This document shows, piece by piece, positions 8,064 through 51,877 of a DNA stretch of 64,000 nucleotides. Position numbers and translations under genes: made by a program. Source of the stretch: Candidatus Saccharimonadales bacterium (lineage in GTDB: Bacteria > Patescibacteriota > Saccharimonadia > Saccharimonadales > 2-12-FULL-41-12); NCBI GenBank assembly GCA_025451045.1, contig JANWLD010000001.1:471468-535467 (forward strand). Direction: 5' to 3'. The notes under the pieces were generated by a model that saw only the letters and a program-made list of their open reading frames with translations, did no database searches and was not told the DNA's origin. Within the stretch, counting starts at the first letter, position 1; every line of letters begins with the position of its first letter.

Positions 8064-8318
8064 ATGGCCTATTGTGAAGCTGCCCAAAAAGAGTGTCGTT
8101 ATCTAGATCAATTAGAGCTAATCAAAGAAAACACGGTTTTAATGCGTGCTACAAGTGATGGCGCTAAAGCTAAATCAGCTTCGGATGTCGAGAAGGGTCT
8201 TGATGGAGCAACTGACGAATTTATAGCAAATTGCTCGGACGACTATTGCGGTCTCGTAGGATTGGCTGTCGGTCGGGCCATGGTAAAACAAGCAGAGGCT
8301 ATTGGCCGAAGAATATAG
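8064..8318 (+). CDS. Hypothetical small acidic protein (84 aa), family C member 1, inserted between rpsG and fusA
   Basis: The ATG lies 2 nt after the rpsG stop, with GAGGT about 9 nt upstream inside the rpsG 3' end. By eye it is a paralog of ORF 19668-19961. GC looks lower than the flanks. No recognisable family. Confidence 0.55.
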   Translation: MAYCEAAQKECRYLDQLELIKENTVLMRATSDGAKAKSASDVEKGLDGATDEFIANCSDDYCGLVGLAVGRAMVKQAEAIGRRI

Positions 8319-10444: not shown

Positions 10445-10732
10445 ATGAATGCTGAAAACAGTGGTGAACAAATGCGTATTTGTCCCTGGAAAGTAGCAAA
10501 AGCTCAAAAACCTCTAGTTATTGAAAATCCTTTAGCTGAATATCCTTCTATGAGAATGGTAGTTCCGGAAGGTGCCGATATAGCATGTGAATCGGACTGT
10601 CCTGGCGCGCGAAAAGAACGCAGGCACTTAGGCCCTATACCTTTGCCGATACAAAAAGAGATATGCCCTCTAAACGAAGTTATAGACGATGCAGGCGCGC
10701 ATAACGCCTCAATACTTAGCAGAAAAGATTAG
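10445..10732 (+). CDS. Questionable ORF (95 aa, 4 Cys) in the 300-bp spacer between convergent fusA and aroC
   Basis: Open frame only. There is no Shine-Dalgarno, the start sits inside a TTGACATG string, and the 3' end overlaps the aroC stop by 4 nt. No family recognised. Confidence 0.25.
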
Positions 10733-11811
10733 TTATTTTGGGCTTTGTGGCGCAGGTGATGGTCCATTATGACCAGGGCGCTCATCGCGTCGACTATGGG
10801 AATGGCACGGGGCAGGACACACGGGTCATGACGGCCGCGAGCTTCCAGCTCCACTGCATTTTCTTCCAAATCAATCGTTTCTTGCTTTTTTGCAATTGTT
10901 GAAACAGGTTTGATAGCTACGCGGAAGTAAATATCTTCGCCGTTGGTTATACCGCCTAGAGTGCCGCCAGCATAGTTGGTTTTGGTTTTGATTTTGCCTG
11001 AATCTACATAAAATTCGTCGTTGTGTTCACTACCGCGCATACCGACACCGTCAAAACCTGAACCAATTTCAAAACCTTTGACGGCATTAATGCTAAGCAT
11101 CGCTTTGCCCAGGTCTGCAGAAATTTTGTCAAAAACCGGCTCGCCAAGCCCGACTGGACAATTTTTAATAACTCCAAAAATAACACCGCCAATGGAATCA
11201 TCATCGGCTTTTACTTCTTCTATAAGTGCAATCATTTTTTTAGCCGCATCGCTATCAGGGCAACGGACGATGTTAGACTCTATCATATCCATAGTGATTT
11301 TTTTGTAGTCTATATCTGTCTTGATGTCACCGACTTGCTGGACAAAGCTTAATATCTCAATACCCAGTTTTTCCTTTAGGTATTTCTTGGCAATCGCCCC
11401 GGCGGCAACACGTGCTAACGTTTCGCGTGCGGAGGCTCGGCCACTGCCTCTCCAATCACGTATGCCGTATTTTTTCTGAAAGGTAAAGTCAGCATGACCC
11501 GGGCGATACAGTTTTTTAATTTCGGCGTAATCTTCCGGCTTTATATCCTCGTTATAGGCGATTAGCAGAATCGGCGTGCCGGTAGTAACGCCTTCATATA
11601 CGCCTGAGAGGATGCTTATTTTATCTTTCTCGGCTCGGGGAGTAGTGATTTTGCTCTGGCCCGGCTTGCGGCGGTCCAAATCTTTTTGGATCTCGGCCTC
11701 GGTTATTTTGATTCCGGCAGGGCAACCGTCAATAACACAGCCGACAGCACCGCCGTGCGATTCACCAAAGGTAGTTATTCTAAATAGTTGTCCAAAACTA
11801 TTTCCTGGCAT
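10729..11811 (-). CDS. aroC: Chorismate synthase
   Basis: 360-aa translation with an AroC-like N-terminus ([28 protein letters not shown]) and [12 protein letters not shown] near the C-terminus. TAATG overlap with aroD. Confidence 0.95.
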
Positions 11812-12485
11812 TATTTGCCTGCTCTTTCCATTATTTTTTCGAATTCAGTGCGGGTAATTTGGCCGGGTGCCGAAGCTTCTTCGCTACTTTCCGGTATAAA
11901 TATTAACTCGTTTCCCCACAGCGCGCCAAAAACTCGCGTAATTTCTCCCTCTTTACCCATACCCAGTACTATATGTTTTTGACCTGTTTCAAGGAAATCT
12001 TTTTTAATGTTAATAAGCCTAAGCGCGTCACTGGCTTGCTCACAGTATGTAGATAGCTTGCTGATATATGGTGAATACGACTTTATTTCTGAAACGATTT
12101 CCTGCAGCTTTGCGTCTGGCGGTGTGTTCTCATAGTTATGATAAGACCCGATTTTTTTGATATCTTTACCCTTTATATATGCCAAATCCTCAGTTTGGCA
12201 GGTTATGTCCAGGTCAACCAAGCAATCCTTCCCGGAAACTGCGTCTAAAACCTTAAATCTCTGCTCAGTCGGCATTTTAATCGGCTCCAGGTTTTGTCGC
12301 CGAAAGACTAAGACAACGCGGCCGGGAAATTTATAGACCAACTCTGGAGCAAAACTTGTTTCAAAAGCTTCTATATAATCAACCCAAACTTCGAAATAAC
12401 CATAGCTAGACTTGGATTGTTCGATAATGCTCAAAACTTCGGCTTTGCTTGGTTTTATAATCGGCAGGCAATACTTACTTTGCAT
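11811..12485 (-). CDS. aroD: 3-dehydroquinate dehydratase, type I
   Basis: 224 aa of AroD-like length and layout (SYHNYENTP, later [10 protein letters not shown]). It lies between aroE and aroC in one overlapping operon. Confidence 0.8.
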
Positions 12486-13308
12486 TCCTCAGCTCCATTA
12501 CGAAATTCCGCATCGCTTGCTCAGGCGCGTCATGTCCAGTGTAAAGTTTTACCTGCTCATAGCCCTGGCTCAAATACATTTCAATGCCGGAAATTGTCTG
12601 CGCGCCGACTTTTTCAGCCTCTTTAAGCAAAACAGTCTCAATTGGTGAATACACAGCGTCAAAAACTATTTGGTCGGGCGTAATGTCGCTAACATCAATA
12701 GGCATTTGATCTTCCTGTCCGACAAAGCCGACCGAAGTAGCATTGCAGACTATGTCTGCATTTTTAATATTTTCCTGCTCACTCAATGATGCATATTTGC
12801 AGTTGAATTTTTCGGCCAGAACCTTTGCTTTCTCAGGAGTACGGTTATAAATAGTTACGTCGCAGCCTTTGTGGGTTAGTCCATAGACAAAAGCCTTTGC
12901 CGCGCCGCCTGCACCGATTACCGCTACTTTTTTACCTTTCAGCTCGGTGATTGCCTCCAGAGGTTTAACCGCGCCGACCCAATCGGTGTTGTAACCGGTC
13001 AAAACCCCGTCATCATTAACCACCGTATTGACCGCGCCGATTGCTTGCGCGTGCTCATCAATTTTGTCCAGATATGGCATGACTATTTCTTTATGCGGCA
13101 TGGTGCAAGTAGCGCCGCGGATTCCCATAGCCCGAACGCCCTTTATAAAATCTTCAATGTTTTCTGCTTTAACCAAGCAGGAAAGATAAATAAACTGGTC
13201 GTCTATACCGAGCTCTTTATAGACTTTGTTATAAATAATAGGCCCGATAGATTGCTTTATTGGGTCGCCAATGCCCAGACAGATTTTTGTAGTCGAATTA
13301 ACTCTCAT
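12475..13308 (-). CDS. aroE: Shikimate 5-dehydrogenase
   Basis: 277 aa with the Rossmann motif VAVIGAGGAAKA and a TCTMPHK-type substrate motif. It overlaps both neighbouring genes. Confidence 0.9.
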   Translation of the reverse strand: MRVNSTTKICLGIGDPIKQSIGPIIYNKVYKELGIDDQFIYLSCLVKAENIEDFIKGVRAMGIRGATCTMPHKEIVMPYLDKIDEHAQAIGAVNTVVNDDGVLTGYNTDWVGAVKPLEAITELKGKKVAVIGAGGAAKAFVYGLTHKGCDVTIYNRTPEKAKVLAEKFNCKYASLSEQENIKNADIVCNATSVGFVGQEDQMPIDVSDITPDQIVFDAVYSPIETVLLKEAEKVGAQTISGIEMYLSQGYEQVKLYTGHDAPEQAMRNFVMELRNAK

Positions 13309-15002
13309 GCAATTTCCAATTTTTCCATTATCTCATCAATGGCTTGGTTTGGAGAAATGGCAGAGGTGTCAATAATGAAATCTGCGTTCCTATAATATTT
13401 ATCTTTTCTTTTCTCCCAGACTTCATCCAGCTCGCCCAGCAAGCTGGGCTGGGTACTTAACTCCGGACGGTTCTTGTCGGTCCTGATACGCTGGGACAGT
13501 ATTCCTGCGTCAGCTTTCAAAAGTATTGATATAGAGTCTGGTTTGAACAGTTCCACGTTAGCCTGGTCTAAAACTATCCCGCCGCCGGATGAAATAACTG
13601 AGTTTGTATGTTTGCTAAGTTGCCGACAAGCCGCGGTTTCCAATTTTCTGAAGTGTTCCCAGCCATTTTCGAGCACGATATCACGGACTTTTTGTCCGTG
13701 TTTTTTCTCCAGGTACAAATCCATATCAATAAAATCCATCTTAAGCCTCTGGGCCAGAATTCTGCCGACGGTGGTCTTGCCGCCGCCGCGCATACCAATG
13801 AGCAAAATGTTTGAAAACGATTTGCTCGTGCGTTTCACAGTCGCTATTTTGGCTAATTCGTCCCAGAAACCGGGGAAGGTTTTATTAACGACAGCCGGAT
13901 TCATAATTCGCATTCCGGGGATTTTTGTACCGGCAACGGCAAAAGACATAGCTATGCGATGGTCGCCATAAGGGTTGATTAATGCATTTTTGGGCTTTCC
14001 GCCAAGGATTGTCAGGCTGTCTTTAGTCGCCGAGGTTTCAATACCCATCTTGGCCAGTTCATTTTGTACGGCGACTACTCGCTCTGTTTCTTTGATGCGT
14101 AGCGAAGCTATACCGTCAATCGTTGTTACGCCCTCTGTGAAGGCGGCTAGGGCAGCCAGTGTCATCGCCTGGTCCGGAAAATCTTCGGCATTAATGTTGG
14201 CCGGTAACTTACCTCCGGTTAATAAATCGACAAATTTTTTATCTCCTTGCTTTGAATCGGGATTTAGCCCTTTGACTTTTGTTTTAGAATTCGTCAATGC
14301 ATTAATTGCAAAGAAATACGCCGCACTGGAATAGTCGTCCTCTACTTCGTAATCTTTCGCCTGGTATTTTTGCGGCTTAATCTCGTAGCGTTGATAATTG
14401 TCATTTTTAACCTTAACTCCAAAATAACCCATGATATCAATCGTCATATCAATATACGGTTTGGATATTTGTTTTCCTTTTACTTCTATGACCAAGCCCT
14501 TTTCAAGTTTCGGGGCAATTAACATCAATGCCGAAAGATATTGGCTGCTGACATCGCCTTTCAAAGTAACCTTATACTCAGTAGGTTCGGAGCTGATAAT
14601 TTTCAGCGGTAAAAACCCGTCTTTGCCGAGGTACTCGATGTTTGCTCCGAGCTGACGCAATGCATCAACCAAATCTTTAATCGGACGTTTTTGCAGGCTT
14701 GCCGCGCCGGTTATCGTTTGCACACCTGGAGAAATACATGCCAGAGCCGTCATGAACCTGGCAGTCAGGCCGGATTCATTAGCATCCAGCTTAGTATCAT
14801 TATTTTTTAATGCCATAAGACAGTTTTGCATCGCAACCGTGTCCTCGCTGTCGAGTAGGTTTTTAATCTCAAATTTATTTTCGCATAGCGTGGAAATCAA
14901 AAGAGCCCTAAGGCTGTAACTTTTCGACCCCGGAACTTTAACAGTCGTCTCAACCGGTTTGTCCAGCGGCGAGACGCTGATTATGTCCAAACTGTTTTTC
15001 AT
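13305..15002 (-). CDS. aroA: Bifunctional EPSP synthase (N-terminal ~390 aa) fused to shikimate kinase (C-terminal ~170 aa)
   Basis: The N-terminal part is AroA-like (VPGSKSYSLRAL, GDHRIAMSFAV). The C-terminal part carries the Walker A motif LIGMRGGGKTTVGR and a shikimate-kinase-like sequence. It is a single 565-aa frame. Confidence 0.9.
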   Translation of the reverse strand: MKNSLDIISVSPLDKPVETTVKVPGSKSYSLRALLISTLCENKFEIKNLLDSEDTVAMQNCLMALKNNDTKLDANESGLTARFMTALACISPGVQTITGAASLQKRPIKDLVDALRQLGANIEYLGKDGFLPLKIISSEPTEYKVTLKGDVSSQYLSALMLIAPKLEKGLVIEVKGKQISKPYIDMTIDIMGYFGVKVKNDNYQRYEIKPQKYQAKDYEVEDDYSSAAYFFAINALTNSKTKVKGLNPDSKQGDKKFVDLLTGGKLPANINAEDFPDQAMTLAALAAFTEGVTTIDGIASLRIKETERVVAVQNELAKMGIETSATKDSLTILGGKPKNALINPYGDHRIAMSFAVAGTKIPGMRIMNPAVVNKTFPGFWDELAKIATVKRTSKSFSNILLIGMRGGGKTTVGRILAQRLKMDFIDMDLYLEKKHGQKVRDIVLENGWEHFRKLETAACRQLSKHTNSVISSGGGIVLDQANVELFKPDSISILLKADAGILSQRIRTDKNRPELSTQPSLLGELDEVWEKRKDKYYRNADFIIDTSAISPNQAIDEIMEKLEIA

Positions 15003-16736: not shown

Positions 16737-16849
16737 TAGCTGCGACCCAGCACCAAAATCTTTAAATTCCATAATCTGATTACAGACTACTTCATTCAGG
16801 ATTTGGTGCTAGACAGGCGCCGAAATAAAGATGTAGAATTTACATCGCA

Positions 16850-16879
16850 TTGACAGAGGTTAGCGTAACGTGCTAATCT
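16850..16879 (+). promoter_or_regulatory. Candidate internal promoter ahead of rplC
   Basis: TTGACA (16850-16855), an 18-nt spacer, then TAATCT (16874-16879), inside an unusually long 262-nt rpsJ-rplC spacer. Confidence 0.4.
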
Positions 16880-16998
16880 GTAATGACTGTTAATAAAACA
16901 TCGCGCATGGCGCGTCATGGAAGGTCGCCTCTAACAGGGGTAGAAACCACCGACCGCCATGATTTTATTGTCAGCTTAAATTAAAGGAGCAAGTAAGC

Positions 16999-19667: not shown

Positions 19668-19961
19668 ATGAACGGTGACTATACTTCTATTCATGAAATT
19701 GCTAGGTTGCATACAGAACCTTTTGTAAAGGGATTGGATGCTGGTTTAGAAGCAATAAAGCAGCGTGAAGAATTAAGCAGTCCTATTACTTTTGATGATG
19801 TGTCAGCTAGGTCAGATGTTTTTCACATTGCTACTAATAGATTGGCAATGAGCGACGAAATACCCGAGTCTTACGGGCAGACTAAATACGAAATCATGGG
19901 TATGGGAGTTATATCTGCTCTTGAAGAAGCCGCTATAAGAAGTAAAGGAAATGTAGGGTAA
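19668..19961 (+). CDS. Hypothetical small acidic protein (97 aa), family C member 2, inserted between rplB and rpsS
   Basis: AGGAG lies 8 nt upstream, inside the rplB 3' end. The ATG is 3 nt after the rplB stop and the stop is 4 nt before the rpsS ATG. By eye it is a paralog of ORF 8064-8318. Confidence 0.55.
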
Positions 19962-20624: not shown

Positions 20625-21253
20625 TGGGCCAGAAAGTAAATCCGATTAGTTTCCGTCTTCAGGTAAACAAACACTGGAAGAGCAAATGGTTCGCTAATAA
20701 AAAAGACTATGCGGAGTATCTGACACAAGATTTGACGGTCAGGCGGATGATAGTCAAAGAACTGGGCTCCCGCGCGGCTATAAACAAAGTTGACATTGAA
20801 CGCTCGCCTAACTTGGCCACTGTTACCATCACCACGGCCAAAGCCGGTGTTGTTATCGGCAGAGGCGGTACAGGCGCCCAAATACTAAAAGACCGAATTG
20901 AGAAAATCTACGGCGTACCGGTCAGGATTAACATTGAAGAAATCAAAAAAGCGGAACTTTACGCGAAGCTTGTCGCTGAGAATATTGCCCATCAGCTGGA
21001 AAGAAGAATTTCCTTCCGCCGGGCTATTAAACAATCTGCGGCCGCGACCATGCGGGCTGGAGCAAAGGGTGTACGTATCGAAGTAGCCGGCCGTCTTAAT
21101 GGCGCGGATATGAGCCGCCGCGAAAAAGTGGTTGAAGGCAGCGTGCCATTACACACTTTGCGTGCCGATATCGATTACTCGGGTGTCAGGGCCCGCACTA
21201 ATGCCGGTATCATTGGCGTGAAAGTTTGGATTTATAAAGGAGAGGTGCTCTGA
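20624..21253 (+). CDS. rpsC: 30S ribosomal protein S3
   Basis: 209-aa S3 translation (MGQKVNPISFRL..., a KH domain, GRLNGADMSR). Confidence 0.97.
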   Translation: MGQKVNPISFRLQVNKHWKSKWFANKKDYAEYLTQDLTVRRMIVKELGSRAAINKVDIERSPNLATVTITTAKAGVVIGRGGTGAQILKDRIEKIYGVPVRINIEEIKKAELYAKLVAENIAHQLERRISFRRAIKQSAAATMRAGAKGVRIEVAGRLNGADMSRREKVVEGSVPLHTLRADIDYSGVRARTNAGIIGVKVWIYKGEVL

Positions 21254-21378
21254 TGTTCCGCTTCACTACACACCAGGTTATAGGTTACAGGTTACAGGTT
21301 ATAGTTAAGACAAACCATCTAGCCCCTTGCACCTATAGCCTGATCCCTAAAGCGACCGAAGGGAGCTTTCCATGCTGA
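21253..21378 (+). repeat. Family A structured repeat, copy A1 (divergent), containing an open 41-codon mini-cistron
   Basis: The ATG overlaps the rpsC TGA (TGATG). The frame is open to a TGA at 21376-21378, overlapping the rplP ATG (21372) by 7 nt. Peptide: [41 protein letters not shown]. It is homologous to the copies at 24072, 25606 and 29631. Confidence 0.85.
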
Positions 21379-21788
21379 TTCCGAAACGCCAGAAGCACCG
21401 ACGAGTGATGAAAGGTCGTATCAAAGGCCCTGCTACCAGTGGCAATACCATTGCCTTTGGCAGCTATGCGCTGCAGTCTATGGGCCAAGACCGGGTTACC
21501 AGCCGCCAGATAGAATCAGCTCGCCAGGCGATGACCCGCTATATCAAACGAGGCGGTAAGATCTGGATAAGGATTTTCCCTCATACTCCTGTTACTAAAA
21601 AACCGCTGGGCCTTAAGATGGGCGGCGGCAAAGGCTCTCCTGAATACTTTGTAGCAAAGGTACGCAAAGGTACAGTATTGTTTGAAATGCAAGGCGTTTC
21701 CGAGGAAACAGCCCGCGAAGCCATGAGGCTGGCTGCCCACAAATTACCGATAAAGACCAGGTTTATTGTCAGAGAGGGCGAAACATGA
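21372..21788 (+). CDS. rplP: 50S ribosomal protein L16
   Basis: 138-aa L16 translation ([11 protein letters not shown]...). Confidence 0.97.
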
Positions 21789-21919
21789 ATCCCGTAGTAG
21801 ATCTCCTAGAACTGAAGTTGAGCAAGCTGTTTTTGTATGGCCGAGTGTCGGTACGTTATTCAGTTTTGTATATTTTTAATCTTCCTTATGGAATAACTAG
21901 GAGGCTCACTACAGGATGA
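21785..21919 (+). repeat. Family B structured repeat, copy B1, containing an open 44-codon mini-cistron
   Basis: ATGA overlap with the rplP stop and ATGA overlap with the rpmC start. Peptide: [44 protein letters not shown]. Terminal arms 21791-21809 and 21897-21915 are complementary, and the 3' arm contains the rpmC AGGAGG. Confidence 0.85.
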
Positions 21920-23796: not shown

Positions 23797-24066
23797 ATGG
23801 CTAAGAAATCAATCGTTAACAGGGACGAAAAACGTAAGAAGATGATAGCTAAATATGCCAAAAAACGAGCTGAAATGAAACAGGCTGGAGACCTTGTCGG
23901 CCTTCATCTTCTGCCTCGTAATTCATCCCCTACCCGGTTCAAGAACCGCTGTAGTGAGACCGGCCGCCCGCGAGCCTACATGCGCACCTTCGGCTTATCG
24001 AGGATTTCTTTTAGGGAACACGCGTCAAAAGGTGAAATACCCGGAGTAACGAAAGGAAGTTGGTAA
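23797..24066 (+). CDS. rpsN: 30S ribosomal protein S14 (long, Cys-less form)
   Basis: 89-aa S14 translation ending ...GVTKGSW, with no CxxC pairs. Confidence 0.95.
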
Positions 24067-24071
24067 TATAG

Positions 24072-24191
24072 ATGTTCCGCTTCACTACACATCAGGTTAC
24101 AGGTTATAGGTTACAGGTTATAGCCAAGATAAACTTTCTAACCCCTAGCCCCTATAACCTAACCCCTAAAGCGACAGAAAGGAGCACCTAA
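24072..24191 (+). repeat. Family A structured repeat, copy A2, containing an open 39-codon mini-cistron
   Basis: The ATG lies 5 nt after the rpsN TAA, and the TAA at 24189-24191 abuts the rpsH ATG. Peptide: MFRFTTHQVTGYRLQVIAKINFLTPSPYNLTPKATERST. There is a perfect 10-bp stem between 24101-24110 and 24151-24160. Confidence 0.88.
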
Positions 24192-25120: not shown

Positions 25121-25255
25121 ATGAGTCCCGTAGTAGATCTCCAAGAACATTCGTTGAATAAACTGTATTTAACTGATAAGCTGTCTATCCATAGTCCAGC
25201 TTTATTAATTTCTAATGCTCTTTGCGGAGCAACTTGGAGGCTCACTACGGGATGA
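25121..25255 (+). repeat. Family B structured repeat, copy B2, containing an open 44-codon mini-cistron
   Basis: The ATG directly follows the rplF TAA, and the TGA overlaps the rplR ATG (ATGA). Peptide: MSPVVDLQEHSLNKLYLTDKLSIHSPALLISNALCGATWRLTTG. Terminal arms 25126-25145 and 25233-25252 are complementary. Confidence 0.85.
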
Positions 25256-25605
25256 GTAGATTAGTGTCAAAGCGTAATAACATAACCAGGAGAAAGAACC
25301 GGGTCAGAACCATGATCCGGACTAATTCAGGGCATCCCCGCTTATCCGTTAATATCAGTAACCGGCATATCCTAGCCCAGGTGATAGATGACAGCGCCCA
25401 TAAGACATTGATATCAGTCTCAACCGAAAAGCAGGCCTATAAAGGCAATATGACTGAAAAAGCCGGCTTGGTGGGCAAGGAAATTGCTGAAAAAGCCAAA
25501 GCCAAGAAAATCAAACAAGTTGTTTTAGACAGGGGCTCTAGACTGTATCATGGCCGTATCAAAGTCCTGGCAGACGCGGCCCGCGAGGAAGGATTGGTAA
25601 TATAG
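25252..25605 (+). CDS. rplR: 50S ribosomal protein L18
   Basis: The L18 translation starts MSRLVSKRNNITRRKNR. The ATG at 25252 is preferred over the track start at 25222 because it sits 11 nt after GGAGG, matching the homologous B1/rpmC junction. Confidence 0.93.
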   Translation: MSRLVSKRNNITRRKNRVRTMIRTNSGHPRLSVNISNRHILAQVIDDSAHKTLISVSTEKQAYKGNMTEKAGLVGKEIAEKAKAKKIKQVVLDRGSRLYHGRIKVLADAAREEGLVI

Positions 25606-25725
25606 ATGTTCCGCTTCACTACACATCAGGTTACAGGTTATAGGTTACAGGTTATAGCCAAGATAAACTTTCTAACCCCTAGCCCCTATAACCTAACCCC
25701 TAAAGCGAAAGAATGGAGCGCATAA
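25606..25725 (+). repeat. Family A structured repeat, copy A3, containing an open 39-codon mini-cistron
   Basis: The ATG directly follows the rplR TAG, and the TAA overlaps the rpsE ATG (TAATG). Peptide: MFRFTTHQVTGYRLQVIAKINFLTPSPYNLTPKAKEWSA. A 115-nt stretch is identical to A2. Confidence 0.88.
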
Positions 25726-26330
25726 TGGCTGAGATGAACAGAAGAAAAGATATTAAGCCGCTAGAGCTGGAAGAGAAGCAATTTGAAGAAAGGGTCGTGC
25801 ATATCGACCGCGTGGCCCGCGTGGTCAAAGGCGGACGGCGCTTCCGGTTCCGTGCCCTCGTGGTGGTAGGTGACAAGAAGGGACGGGTAGGCGTAGCTAC
25901 CGCCAAAGGCGCGGATGTTACCGCGGCCGTAGCCAAAGCAGTCGACGTGGCCAAGAAGAACCTGACTACTTTAGTACTTTATAAAGGCACTCTGCCGCAT
26001 GAAGTTCAGGCCAAAGTTGGCGGTTCGAACATTCTGTTGAAGCCTGCCAGCCCCGGAACCGGTATTATCGCCGGCGGCGTGGTACGTACGTTACTTGAAG
26101 TCGGCGGTGTCAGCAATGCCCTCTCCAAATCTCTCGGTTCGAGTAACAAGGTCAATACCGCCTATGCGACGCTGAAAGCGCTCAAAAGCGTAGTGCCAGC
26201 AGACAAGTGGATTACCAGAATCCAGACAAAAGCCAATAGTCCCAAGCTAAAAGCTAAAATAGAAAATCCGGAAAAGAAGACAGAGAAGAAAGTAACTGCC
26301 AAACCGAAAAAAACGGAAAGTAAGAAGTGA
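25725..26330 (+). CDS. rpsE: 30S ribosomal protein S5 with K-rich C-terminal tail
   Basis: S5 translation (VVHIDRVARVVKGGRRFRFRALVVVGD). The ATG at 25725 is preferred over the in-frame ATG at 25713, by analogy with the other family A junctions where GGAG precedes the start. Confidence 0.93.
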   Translation: MAEMNRRKDIKPLELEEKQFEERVVHIDRVARVVKGGRRFRFRALVVVGDKKGRVGVATAKGADVTAAVAKAVDVAKKNLTTLVLYKGTLPHEVQAKVGGSNILLKPASPGTGIIAGGVVRTLLEVGGVSNALSKSLGSSNKVNTAYATLKALKSVVPADKWITRIQTKANSPKLKAKIENPEKKTEKKVTAKPKKTESKK

Positions 26331-29177: not shown

Positions 29178-29630
29178 ATGGCAGAAACTGATACCAAAAC
29201 TAAGGAAGAAGTAACTACCGAAACTACGGACGTTGAAGCTAAACCGGCGGCCAAGCCGAAGAAGAAAAAGGTTAAACGCAATGTACCGCTGGGCCAAGTT
29301 CATGTACTGGCGACCTTCAATAACACCATCGTTACAGTTACTGACTCAAACGGCGGCGTGTTGACAAATTCTAGTGCCGGCGCTTGTGGCTTTCGCGGCA
29401 GCAAAAAAGGCACGGCTTATGCCGCGCAGGTTGCTGCTGAAAAAGCAGTTGAAGAAGCAAAACAACGTTTTGGACTTAGCAAAGTACATGTCTTTATCAA
29501 AGGTATCGGTCTGGGGCGCGAGGCAGCTGTCAGAGTTTTAGGTTCAGCTAACATCGCCGTCGAGTCCATACAGGACGTTACCGGCGTGCCGCATGGCGGC
29601 GTACGGCCGAGAAAGGCAAGAAGAGTCTAG
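29178..29630 (+). CDS. rpsK: 30S ribosomal protein S11 with ~30-aa charged N-terminal extension
   Basis: S11 core (GQVHVLATFNNTIVTVTD...GFRGSKKGT). Confidence 0.95.
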   Translation: MAETDTKTKEEVTTETTDVEAKPAAKPKKKKVKRNVPLGQVHVLATFNNTIVTVTDSNGGVLTNSSAGACGFRGSKKGTAYAAQVAAEKAVEEAKQRFGLSKVHVFIKGIGLGREAAVRVLGSANIAVESIQDVTGVPHGGVRPRKARRV

Positions 29631-29753
29631 ATGATGTTCCGCTTCACTACACATCAGGTTACAGGTTATAGGTTACAGGTTATAGCTAAGACAAACCCTC
29701 TAACCCCTAGCCCCTATAACCTAACCCCTAAAGCGACCGGAGGGAGCTTCTGA
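29631..29753 (+). repeat. Family A structured repeat, copy A4, containing an open 40-codon mini-cistron
   Basis: ATGATG directly follows the rpsK TAG, and the TGA overlaps the rpsD ATG (TGATG). Peptide: MMFRFTTHQVTGYRLQVIAKTNPLTPSPYNLTPKATGGSF. Confidence 0.88.
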
Positions 29754-49576: not shown

Positions 49577-51877
49577 ATGGCGGAAAAAAAGGGAACATTC
49601 ATCGTCTTGGAAGGTACCGACGGTGCCGGCAAGTCTACCCAATTTCGTTTGCTTTCGGATAAACTCAAGAAAAACGGCTATAAGGTCGAGCAGTTCCAAT
49701 TTCCGCAGTACGACGAGCCGTCCAGCTACTTTATAAAACAGTATTTAGCCGGCAATCTTGGCTCATCCGAAGAGATTGGCCCGTATACCGCTTCTATGTT
49801 TTTCGCGCTTGATAGGTTCCGGGCGGCTGTAAAAATTCAAAAGGCATTAGACGAGGGTAGGGTCGTCATTGCCGATCGCTTCACCGGCTCCAACATGGCT
49901 CATCAGGGGGTATTGTTTGATAATGCCGAGCAACGCCGAGGCTTTTTCATTTGGCTGGATCAGATAGAGTTTGAAATGTTTAAAATACCGCGGCCTGACA
50001 TATCACTGGTGCTTCGAGTACCGGCCGAAGTCGCGGCTAAGAATGTCGACAAACGCGGTAATAAAAAGGATATCCATGAGCGCAGCCTGAAGCATATGCA
50101 AAGGTCTGTAGAGGTTTATGATAACCTTTGCCAGTTGTTTCCCAAAGACTTCAAACAGATTGACTGCGCGCGCTCCGGCGAGATATTGGACGAAAAACTG
50201 ATAAGCGACCGGGTTTGGGAAACAGCTTTGGCTTACATTCCAGACGGTGAAAAATTAAAAAAAAAGATAAACGGAAATATTAAACAAGATAATGCTTATT
50301 TATCAAAAGACGGCGGCGTTACAAGGATTACCGAAGAAGGGCATCGTTATCTTGAACCGCTGCTGACTAACAGTAGGAGCGATGTCTACGCTTTTACCGA
50401 CAAGCTATCATCCCAGACCATTGCCGCCGCCATGGCCCGGCTGAGCCGCCGCGGTGATGATATGCGCGTAACCTTGTTGGATGAGTTCGCAAGCGTAGCC
50501 GGCAAGGACGAGCAGCTGCTTAAACGCGTAATTACCGCGTACGGCGATGATTCCGTGCAACAACTGGTCGGCCAGCATGTAGTGGTAGAAAATGCGAGTA
50601 ACTTGCTGACCAAGAAGCTTGAATGGGGCCGCCTAGCCGCTTATCTGGAACAATCAACCCGCTATATCTATTTTGATAAGAAAAATGAGCTAGGGAACTA
50701 TCGATACCATCGCCTGCCCTACCTCAAAAAAGACATCGAGAAAACTTATAACGCTACGCTGGACAGGATTTTCGATATTTACTCAAATATGGTAGCAAAA
50801 TTGACTGATTACGTTCGTCAACATTCGTCTGTCCCGGAGGATGAGCGTGATATCGCTTGGAAAGGCGCGACCCGTGCCCAAGCCTGCGATGCTGCCCGCT
50901 CGGTTTTGCCTGTCGCTACGACTGCCACAGTTGGTATATTTGCTTCAGGCCAAGCCCTGGAAAGCTTGATTATGCACCTGCTCAGCGATGAATTGGCCGA
51001 ATCCCACGAAGTCGGACGACTGCTTTTAGCCGAAGGGCGTAAAGTCGTCCCGGCCTTTTTAGAGCGGGTTGATATTAACGAACGCGGCGTTCTGGCCATG
51101 GGCTACCGTGCCTTCACCCGAGAAAATACGAAAGATATAGCCAATGAACTTTTGCCAAACAAGATAAGCGGCGATTTTGACAGTGTCAATTTATCAGATG
51201 TCTGGCCAAAGAATGAGCTGGATATAGTCCCTGATATCTTATACGAACACAGCTCGCTTTCACTGAATGAGATAAAAGACGAGGTAGAAAAGCTATCGAT
51301 TGCCAAGAAGAAAAAAGTCATTCAAAGCTACATTGGCGAGCGATATAACCGCCGGCACAAACCCGGCCGGGCGTTTGAAAAAATACATTATTCGTGGGAT
51401 ATCCTGTGCGATTACGGTATTTTCCGTGATTTGCAAAGGCATCGTATGGTTGACGACCTCGAGTGGCAAATGTTGACGCCGCGCTATGGCTATGAAGTCC
51501 CTGAGCTGGTCGTTGACGCGGGACTAACAGAAGCGTTTGAAAAATGTTTTGACCTAAGCCTTTCGCTTTATAGCCTGATGCAGAAGAATGGCTATGAGCA
51601 GGAAGCGCAGTACGCGACTCTGCTAGGCCACCGGATGCGCTGGAAAATGACTTTCAACGCCCGTGAGGCGTATCATTTTATAGAGTTGCGAAGTAGTCCG
51701 CAGGGACATCCGGCTTACCGCAAAATTGCCCAACAAATCTATGAAAAAATCGCCGAAGTCCATCCGATAATCGCCGACGGGATGAAGTTTATCAATCAGG
51801 ACGAAAACGCCGAATTAACCCGTTTGGCCGCCGAACGCTACACCCAGAAAAAACTCGCCCAACTCGATATGGGTTGA
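49577..51877 (+). CDS. Fusion protein: thymidylate kinase (N-terminal ~215 aa) + flavin-dependent thymidylate synthase ThyX (long, ~550 aa)
   Basis: The Tmk part carries FIVLEGTDGAGKSTQ and DRF. The ThyX part carries LQRHRMV...TPRYG, ELRSSPQGHPAYR, and an upstream degenerate ThyX-like half (...EQSTRYIYF). It is one uninterrupted 766-aa frame. Confidence 0.85.
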   Translation: MAEKKGTFIVLEGTDGAGKSTQFRLLSDKLKKNGYKVEQFQFPQYDEPSSYFIKQYLAGNLGSSEEIGPYTASMFFALDRFRAAVKIQKALDEGRVVIADRFTGSNMAHQGVLFDNAEQRRGFFIWLDQIEFEMFKIPRPDISLVLRVPAEVAAKNVDKRGNKKDIHERSLKHMQRSVEVYDNLCQLFPKDFKQIDCARSGEILDEKLISDRVWETALAYIPDGEKLKKKINGNIKQDNAYLSKDGGVTRITEEGHRYLEPLLTNSRSDVYAFTDKLSSQTIAAAMARLSRRGDDMRVTLLDEFASVAGKDEQLLKRVITAYGDDSVQQLVGQHVVVENASNLLTKKLEWGRLAAYLEQSTRYIYFDKKNELGNYRYHRLPYLKKDIEKTYNATLDRIFDIYSNMVAKLTDYVRQHSSVPEDERDIAWKGATRAQACDAARSVLPVATTATVGIFASGQALESLIMHLLSDELAESHEVGRLLLAEGRKVVPAFLERVDINERGVLAMGYRAFTRENTKDIANELLPNKISGDFDSVNLSDVWPKNELDIVPDILYEHSSLSLNEIKDEVEKLSIAKKKKVIQSYIGERYNRRHKPGRAFEKIHYSWDILCDYGIFRDLQRHRMVDDLEWQMLTPRYGYEVPELVVDAGLTEAFEKCFDLSLSLYSLMQKNGYEQEAQYATLLGHRMRWKMTFNAREAYHFIELRSSPQGHPAYRKIAQQIYEKIAEVHPIIADGMKFINQDENAELTRLAAERYTQKKLAQLDMG

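Follow-up and report, generated by a model that had tools for sequence, protein, structure and literature searches.

The stretch analyzed here (the window: 64,000 nucleotides [nt] of contig JANWLD010000001.1, from a Candidatus Saccharimonadales bacterium) carries the S10/spc/alpha ribosomal-protein cluster on its + strand between 16.4 and 32.6 kb. In a protein search the best matches of its L18 protein are in Candidatus Saccharimonadales, with a single identical entry, on a 538-kb NCBI contig. As in other bacteria of the Candidate Phyla Radiation (CPR), the L30 gene is absent between S5 and L15. Six junctions between genes of the cluster are occupied by short insertions, which fall into two families: family A, an apparently undescribed non-autonomous repeat with four copies (A1 to A4), and family B, with two (B1 and B2) (Table 1). 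The subject of this analysis is a block of sequence that copies A2, at the rpsN/rpsH junction, and A3, at the rplR/rpsE junction, share without a single difference and that runs into the ends of both upstream genes.

Table 1. Features of the ribosomal-protein cluster discussed in the text (window coordinates)
Feature	Positions	Strand	Remarks
A1, rpsC/rplP (S3/L16)	21253..21371	+	most diverged window copy; mini-ORF 21253-21378
B1, rplP/rpmC (L16/L29)	21785..21915	+	131 nt; terminal inverted repeat; 44-codon bridging ORF; ATGA overlaps
rpsN (S14)	23797..24066	+	89 aa; ends VTKGSW as in relatives
Identical block, recipient side (rpsN/rpsH junction, copy A2)	24060..24174	+	
12 nt TTGGTAATATAG at rpsN end, apparently rplR-derived	24060..24071	+	relatives' rpsN ends differ
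A2, rpsN/rpsH (S14/S8)	24072..24191	+	39-codon mini-ORF; TAA directly before rpsH ATG
3' end of A2 (CAGAAAGGAGCACCTAA), apparently older and unconverted	24175..24191	+	consensus GCGAC.G.A.GGAGC; rpsH Shine-Dalgarno
B2, rplF/rplR (L6/L18)	25121..25251	+	131 nt; architecture like B1; direct repeat ATGAGT
rplR (L18)	25252..25605	+	117 aa; ends GLVI; length and ending as in closest homologues
Identical block, putative donor side (last 12 nt of native rplR + first 103 nt of A3)	25594..25708	+	
A3, rplR/rpsE (L18/S5)	25606..25724	+	mini-ORF 25606-25725; stop overlaps rpsE ATG (TAATG)
A4, rpsK/rpsD (S11/S4)	29634..29752	+	mini-ORF 29631-29753; TGATG overlap

Base-by-base comparison confirms what an earlier note on this DNA had reported: the run of identity is exactly 115 nt long, and it is read in different frames at the two gene ends. 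It covers the end of rpsN, AGT TGG TAA (...GSW-stop), and that of rplR, GGA TTG GTA ATA TAG (...GLVI-stop), of which only TTG onward lies inside the block. The identity ends sharply on both sides (24059 G vs 25593 A; 24175 C vs 25709 A). The four window copies are alike only from the ATG on, so that the A2/A3 identity reaches 12 nt further 5'. Inside the element, A2 and A3 differ at none of the 103 positions up to ..AAGCGA but at 4 of the 17 that follow (Fisher p = 3e-4); over the same 103-nt segment A4 differs from them at 4 positions and A1 at 14. The identity is far above chance and above the family background, and the step from 0/103 to 4/17 means that the block is a mosaic segment, not merely a young duplicate.

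To which of the two genes did the 12 nt ahead of the ATG first belong? L18 C-termini were compared among the 120 best homologues, and DNA was compared in six element-free lineages (L001/L002, L003-L005, L006, L007, L145 and L146), in which none of the six junctions occupied in the window holds an insertion and the genes there abut or overlap. The 16 closest L18 homologues end GLVI, GLVV, GLTI or GLKI, as do 24 of the best 120, and nearly all the closest ones are 117 aa long, like the window protein. In the six element-free lineages L18 ends GL-V-I/V, encoded by GGA TTG GTA ATA TAA/TAG with the rpsE ATG directly after it: ggattggttattTAAatg in L001, ggattggtaataTAAatg in L003/L005, ggattagtaataTAG in L006, ggactggtaataTAAtg in L007, ggattggtagtaTAGatg in L145 and ggattggttataTAGatg in L146. 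Since these relatives carry the same rplR end, TTGGTAATATAG followed by the ATG of the next gene is native to rplR in this clade, and L18 was not rewritten.

The rpsN junction is a different matter. In all relatives rpsN ends AGC TGG TAA/TAG and is separated from the rpsH ATG by ggagtagcc, gaggagcgc, ggagtaatt or a single t. The window alone has AGT, and its junction reads AGT TGG TAA TATAG ATG, with the 5-nt TATAG in place of the relatives' spacer. Neither the T of AGT nor TATAG has a counterpart at the relatives' rpsN junctions, and both match the rplR tail. A native rplR tail and an odd rpsN junction together indicate that the transfer ran from rplR/rpsE (A3, the donor) to rpsN/rpsH (A2), with 12 nt of the rplR tail hitchhiking. 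Both proteins are unchanged, the S14 serine codon going from AGC to the synonymous AGT and L18 keeping GLVI, and the old GGAG spacer after rpsN was replaced by TATAG. The outcome is a silent event, probably a gene conversion, that altered no ribosomal protein and went in the direction opposite to that first proposed.

We consider it probable that the 115-nt identity records such a recent non-reciprocal transfer (gene conversion) from A3 to an A2 that already existed. On the left the tract would have extended beyond the element to take in the 12 terminal nt of rplR, and been resolved where the end of rplR (GGATTGGTAA) briefly matches that of rpsN (GGAAGCTGGTAA), a chance similarity of two gene ends (GGAAGGA-TTGGTAA vs GAAAGGAAGCTGGTAA); its right end would fall inside the element. 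What lies beyond that right end is informative. The A2 3' end, GCGACAGAAAGGAGCACCTA (in longer form GCGACAGAAAGGAGCACCTAA), agrees with the family consensus AAGCGAC.G.A.GGAGC and is similar to the L008 copy (GGAGCACCTAG); in these last 17 nt it is A3 that is deviant, with GCGAA and TGGAG. Because the A2 end is of the family type and differs from A3, A2 should predate the event, which favors conversion over a fresh insertion. Gene conversion is marked by sharp-bordered identity within diverged paralogues and by a donor that its flanks reveal, and both are seen here: 0/115 differences against 4/17, and the native rplR tail. The tufA/tufB genes, rRNA operons and insertion sequences also show sharp-bordered identity in diverged paralogues; the present case differs from tufA/tufB-type conversion in that the tract is only 115 nt and one of its borders lies outside the repeat, in a 6-7-nt match of unrelated genes. 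The event studied shows recombination between copies, not transposition, so the view that the block is direct evidence of an element mobile within the operon holds for recombination and is weaker evidence for mobility than had been claimed.

Three points count against conversion. The next L18 homologues are only 66-74% identical, and no pre-conversion state of A2 is found among these nearest relatives; conversion over a left-end match of 6-7 nt is unusual for homologous recombination; and assembly could have made the internal identity look more perfect than it is.

A fresh insertion, in which a new A3-derived copy with an imprecise 5' boundary integrated de novo at rpsN/rpsH, would carry the rplR tail along with the element, as expected of imprecise copy-out or template switching, and would also fit the loss of the native spacer from the rpsN junction. 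We nevertheless think it unlikely, because the last 17 nt of A2 differ from A3 at 4 positions and by one indel after 115 nt without any difference, and because a one-step copy of A3 fails to explain a good family-type 3' end in A2.

Somewhat less likely still is that the elements are not mobile at all but are vertically inherited cis-regulatory RNA structures (processing sites, stabilizers or protein-binding sites) whose identity reflects concerted evolution only. Every copy is sense-oriented, the S3/L16 slot is filled in three lineages, the heptamer array and AAGCGAC box described below are conserved beyond the needs of pairing, and the outer helix has many U-G wobble pairs, all of which would suit such structures. 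Against this, the family occupies more than 14 different junctions, including the non-ribosomal gyrB/next gene, hypothetical/MBL-fold and the site upstream of an rfbA-like gene; the nearest relatives have no family member at any of the six junctions; and neither A nor B has an Rfam match at gathering score or even at E <= 1.

An assembly or polishing artefact, with two similar copies homogenized or a junction mis-threaded, is improbable. The contig is metagenome-derived and is the only one with this L18, and in an exact repeat of 115 nt small differences can be lost to bubble-popping or to polishing with multi-mapped reads. Gene order and both flanks are nevertheless intact, the block boundaries fall at biologically meaningful positions, and only ~6 nt are common to the rpsN flank and the rplR-derived block, far below an assembly k-mer, so that the junction of GGAAG with TTGGTAATATAG would be present in the reads and its being an artefact is unlikely.

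The model of the earlier note, a copy from rpsN/rpsH into rplR/rpsE that brought at least 7 nt of rpsN coding sequence and rewrote the last residues and stop of L18, has in its favor the TGG TAA in the block, which is the obligatory S14 ending, and the GL-x-F ending of most bacterial L18 proteins (GLEF in 75 of the best 120 homologues), but can be set aside as very improbable: the closest L18 homologues end GLVI or GLVV, the corresponding codons are native in all six element-free lineages, relatives with GLVI have no element at rplR/rpsE, and TATAG and the AGT codon have no origin in rpsN. A recent transfer that took flanking coding bases with it stands; its direction and its consequence for L18 do not, and the element-free relatives show just what that note had named as refuting its model, an L18 that already has this ending, encoded by the same bases.

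The architecture of family A is of more interest than the conversion event itself. A repeat search finds the four window copies, all between ribosomal-protein genes, at 21241-21372, 24060-24191, 25594-25725 and 29622-29753, and a family hidden Markov model finds no further full copy within the 64 kb. Each copy carries a small open reading frame (mini-ORF), and a profile of the four peptides matches four small 'hypothetical proteins' in other assemblies, each between co-directional genes (L012, L008-L011, L013 and L014). A DNA pattern search that used the family-conserved parts and ignored ORFs added ten metagenome stretches; the DNA pattern alone yielded the eight copies of L135-L139, L143 and L144, and the DNA repeat search the four window copies. 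This gives 16 distinct copies, all in Saccharimonadales-type contigs; the named taxon, where one is given, is Saccharimonadales (L047). Their slots are L23/L2 (L135), L22/S3 (L135 and L138), S3/L16 (window, L012 and L139), S14/S8, L18/S5 and S11/S4 (window), S8/L6 (L144), rpoA/L17 (L014), L35/L20 (L143), gyrB and the next gene, probably gyrA (L013), hypothetical/MBL-fold (L008-L011, and again in L140-L142), upstream of an rfbA-like gene (L136) and one further locus (L137), the upstream gene being unassigned in the last two. All 16 are sense-oriented and lie right after a start codon, with 115-125 nt from start codon to start codon. A genome can hold several of these small copies (~119 nt, four in 64 kb in the window; two 1.75 kb apart in L135). 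A search of the genome contigs for an exact 22-mer taken from the start of A gave no match.

Two of the slots deserve comment. S3/L16 holds an A-type copy in three lineages (window 21253-21378; L012 1897-2025; L139), and by S3 no relative is closer than L012 (92.8% identity). The copy in this slot may therefore be the oldest, passed on vertically, and the one from which the others derive. At L35/L20, small inserted ORFs are present in other Saccharimonadales-type contigs (L008 17755-17901; L143 4538-4659), of which the one in L143 belongs to family A; its bridging frame has GTG as start codon and extends 11 nt into rplT.

From 5' to 3' the 16 copies consist of the start codon, ~20 nt that are moderately conserved, four near-invariant GGTTAYA heptamers, a variable loop, a 3' arm with ACCT periodicity, the box AAGCGAC.G.A.GGAG and, after 5-7 nt, the downstream start (mostly TAATG), which lies ~85 nt from the heptamer array. 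Comparison with empty sites places the element after the native start codon of the downstream gene. The initiation context of the mini-ORF is native (an abutting upstream stop, or a native Shine-Dalgarno sequence in L136, L135b and L138), and the element supplies the Shine-Dalgarno sequence and start codon of the downstream gene. Filled sites read ATG-element-ATG where relatives have a single ATG, an arrangement in which a 3-nt duplication and an element-borne ATG would look alike; in L008, L012, L014 and L143 the two start codons differ (ATG vs GTG).

In 16/16 copies an open frame of 38-42 codons bridges the two genes: it begins with the start codon that lies at the stop of the upstream gene and closes where the downstream gene starts. 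Its stop lies at an offset of 0-1 nt in 12/16, and in A1, L012, L136 and L143 it runs 4-14 nt into the downstream gene. Over the 16 copies the bridging frame has no stops and the other two frames have 45 and 42; per copy, an open frame occurs in 9-19% of composition-matched shuffles. Differences between copies are mostly non-synonymous (non-synonymous vs synonymous 10 vs 4 for A1/A2 and 7 vs 1 for L135a/L135b), so it is the openness of the frame that is conserved and not the peptide. In A3, the 3' end at 25713-25727 has changed from GAAAGGAGC to GAATGGAGC, a weaker Shine-Dalgarno sequence; the change makes an ATG at 25713, in frame with rpsE and 12 nt upstream of the homology-supported start at 25725.

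Single-sequence folds of copies from other genomes give a long interrupted hairpin in which the heptamer array pairs with the 3' arm (z -0.6 to -5.5), and when the structure derived from L144 is laid on the alignment, 80% of inner-helix cells are paired vs 27-46% in slid controls. Family A has no terminal inverted repeats, pairing of its 5' and 3' ends being no better than in shuffles (mean z ~-0.3, n=16). No promoter-like or terminator-like pattern was found in A or B copies; in A the hairpin is followed by AAGCGAC..GGAG, and none of the copies has the GC-rich hairpin and T-run of an intrinsic terminator or attenuator. Conservation of the heptamers and of AAGCGAC beyond pairing needs suggests sequence-specific recognition by a trans-acting factor.

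Arrays of four GGTTAYA heptamers are not confined to the full cassette. They occur in >120 contigs (L015-L134) from Acidobacteriota, Chloroflexota, Cyanobacteria, Bacteroidota, Vibrio, several CPR groups and others. These heptamer-only contigs have no A-type flanks, L047 being the one true family A member among them, and the full-length cassette is found in Saccharimonadales-type contigs only. We regard the heptamer-only arrays as hairpin-only relatives of the A core; since similar arrays occur in so many phyla, the factor might be widespread. Such an array is often followed by a second, partly complementary heptamer array, e.g., cctgtcccctgtcccct. The heptamer pattern by itself was rejected as a family marker because it is generic, and the GGTTAYA heptamer is also known in the literature as the fission-yeast telomere unit.

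Family B is unrelated to A in sequence, and each copy adds exactly 131 nt. Its inverted ends of ~18 nt, CCCGTAGTAGATCTCC and GGAGGCTCACTACGGG, form a terminal stem (dG -21 and -27 kcal/mol; z = -5.2 and -6.1) that contains the GGAGG of the element, so that the Shine-Dalgarno sequence is locked; the outer repeat has the form CCCGTAGTAG...CTACGGG. B1 is flanked by repeats of ATGAA and B2 by repeats of ATGAGT; at these sites relatives carry ATGA or ATGAGT only once. Like A, family B has an open frame, here of 44 codons, which meets the genes on either side in ATGA or TAAATG junctions. When the B peptides are searched against proteins, only the window's own ORF is returned, and B was found in this genome alone. 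That two repeats unrelated in sequence share one bridging design within a single operon argues that it is this design which permits survival there.

How might such insertions be tolerated? In relatives these genes are coupled through abutting or overlapping stop and start codons, and an insertion of ~120 nt would break that coupling. Copies that persist would restore it by means of a short translated bridge and a new stop-start overlap: ribosomes finishing the upstream gene would translate the mini-ORF, unwind the hairpin, terminate at the stop-start overlap and re-initiate on the downstream gene. In family B the ribosome-binding site would open only through translation of the bridge. As a tentative proposal, then, A and B may be undescribed operon-resident selfish cassettes aimed at the start codon or ATGA overlap of coupled genes, with the GGTTAYA array and AAGCGAC as recognition sites for a trans-acting factor; their open frame, Shine-Dalgarno sequence and new stop-start overlap would keep them harmless.

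Several observations count against the coupling model and the account of the element given above. Translation of the mini-ORF is a step that we infer. The hairpins of the window copies are weak (z -0.5 to -1.5), and RNAalifold finds no consensus structure in the 16-copy alignment, because heptamer registers shift between copies. Covariation is sparse, with one pair seen as CG:8, UA:4 and GC:1. The idea that codons 3-5 of the family A mini-ORF mask the Shine-Dalgarno sequence was rejected (z +1.2 to -2.1 vs shuffles), and masking is retained for family B alone. Finally, no transposase domain is present in the Pfam-scanned window ORFs, and no mobilizing enzyme was found in the window.

Comparison with known systems places the two families differently. 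The Correia/NEMIS, ERIC/IRU, RUP, BOX and REP/BIME repeats are alike in being ~120-130 nt long and non-coding in the usual sense, in having several diverged copies per genome, in forming hairpins, in lying within operons and in exchanging sequence between copies. Family B has both features of a miniature inverted-repeat transposable element (MITE), and in its ~18-nt terminal inverted repeats and 4-6-nt flanking direct repeat the two copies resemble MITE/REP-type elements. Family A shares with MITEs its small size, its several copies per genome and the lack of a transposase gene, the short bridging frame being its only ORF. It is unlike these repeats in lacking a convincing terminal inverted repeat, in being strictly sense-oriented and exactly at a start codon, and in having its own Shine-Dalgarno sequence, start codon and always-open bridging frame; we know of no partner transposase for it. 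In the REP/RAYT system a palindrome of ~35 nt is preceded by GTAG and a RAYT gene is present in the genome. The start of B, CCCGTAGTAG, includes GTAG but B is 131 nt long, A has no GTAG, and no Y1-transposase domain was found in the window ORFs scanned. Rickettsia palindromic elements are likewise palindromic repeats tolerated in compact genomes, where they survive by not interfering with translation of the host locus; unlike A, which is a separate mini-cistron that leaves both proteins untouched, they are inserted in frame within protein genes and are translated as a segment of the host protein.

Heptamer repeats offer another parallel. Cyanobacterial STRR sequences and TAACTGA repeats are, like A, intergenic 7-nt arrays, mostly forward and a few nt upstream of starts; the latter are direct repeats found patchily in Beggiatoaceae, Cyanobacteria and Bacteroidetes just upstream of start codons, with function unknown (PMC4679880). 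Family A has the head-to-tail, intergenic arrangement upstream of a start that defines heptamer tandem repeats, and the cassette is additional to that class: a fixed four-unit array in a 119-nt cassette with conserved flanks. Translational coupling by termination and reinitiation at overlapping stop and start codons has been reviewed (PMC12548453). The TAATG, TGATG and ATGA overlaps, the mini-ORF start that abuts the upstream stop and the family B Shine-Dalgarno sequence locked in the terminal stem all agree with it. Unlike the systems reviewed there, the device is on a repeated, apparently transferable cassette and did not evolve in place, and in family A masking of the Shine-Dalgarno sequence is unsupported. 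No description of repeats with bridging ORFs or of Saccharibacteria operon repeats was found in the limited library searched, which is absence of evidence only.

The most conserved and tightly packed operons of a reduced CPR genome thus tolerate repeated insertions, and the shared design of two unrelated families suggests that translational coupling decides which insertions survive. If this is true, the cassettes are natural insulator-like or coupling parts, and they mark recombination in genomes thought to be very static. They also give rise to spurious small 'hypothetical proteins' and to assembly breaks when genomes of Saccharibacteria are assembled from metagenomes.

Other gaps in the window's gene order are also filled. 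A 97-codon ORF (19668-19961) fills the L2/S19 gap, which is absent in relatives; it matches no Pfam family and does not resemble the ORF that L012 has in this position. An 84-codon ORF (8064-8318) starts 2 nt past the S7 stop and fills most of the 280-nt S7/EF-G gap; it has no Pfam match and is similar neither to the L2/S19 ORF nor to the corresponding L012 ORF. Between S10 and L3 there are 262 nt without a long ORF (16737-16998), where relatives have an unannotated gene, of 217 aa in L001 and 606 aa in L005; this slot therefore looks like an insertion hot spot.

It is of note that a shikimate-pathway block lies between fusA and tuf on the - strand (10729-15002), with genes for chorismate synthase, type I dehydroquinase, shikimate dehydrogenase and an EPSP synthase-shikimate kinase fusion; this is unusual, since CPR genomes are not expected to encode such biosynthesis. 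The L1 ORF (47487-48596) is 369 aa long with the L1 domain confined to residues 172-360, which points to a long N-terminal extension or else to a listed TTG start placed too far upstream. Lastly, a 766-aa ORF (49577-51877) contains a thymidylate kinase domain and two ThyX (Thy1) stretches, and is apparently a fusion.

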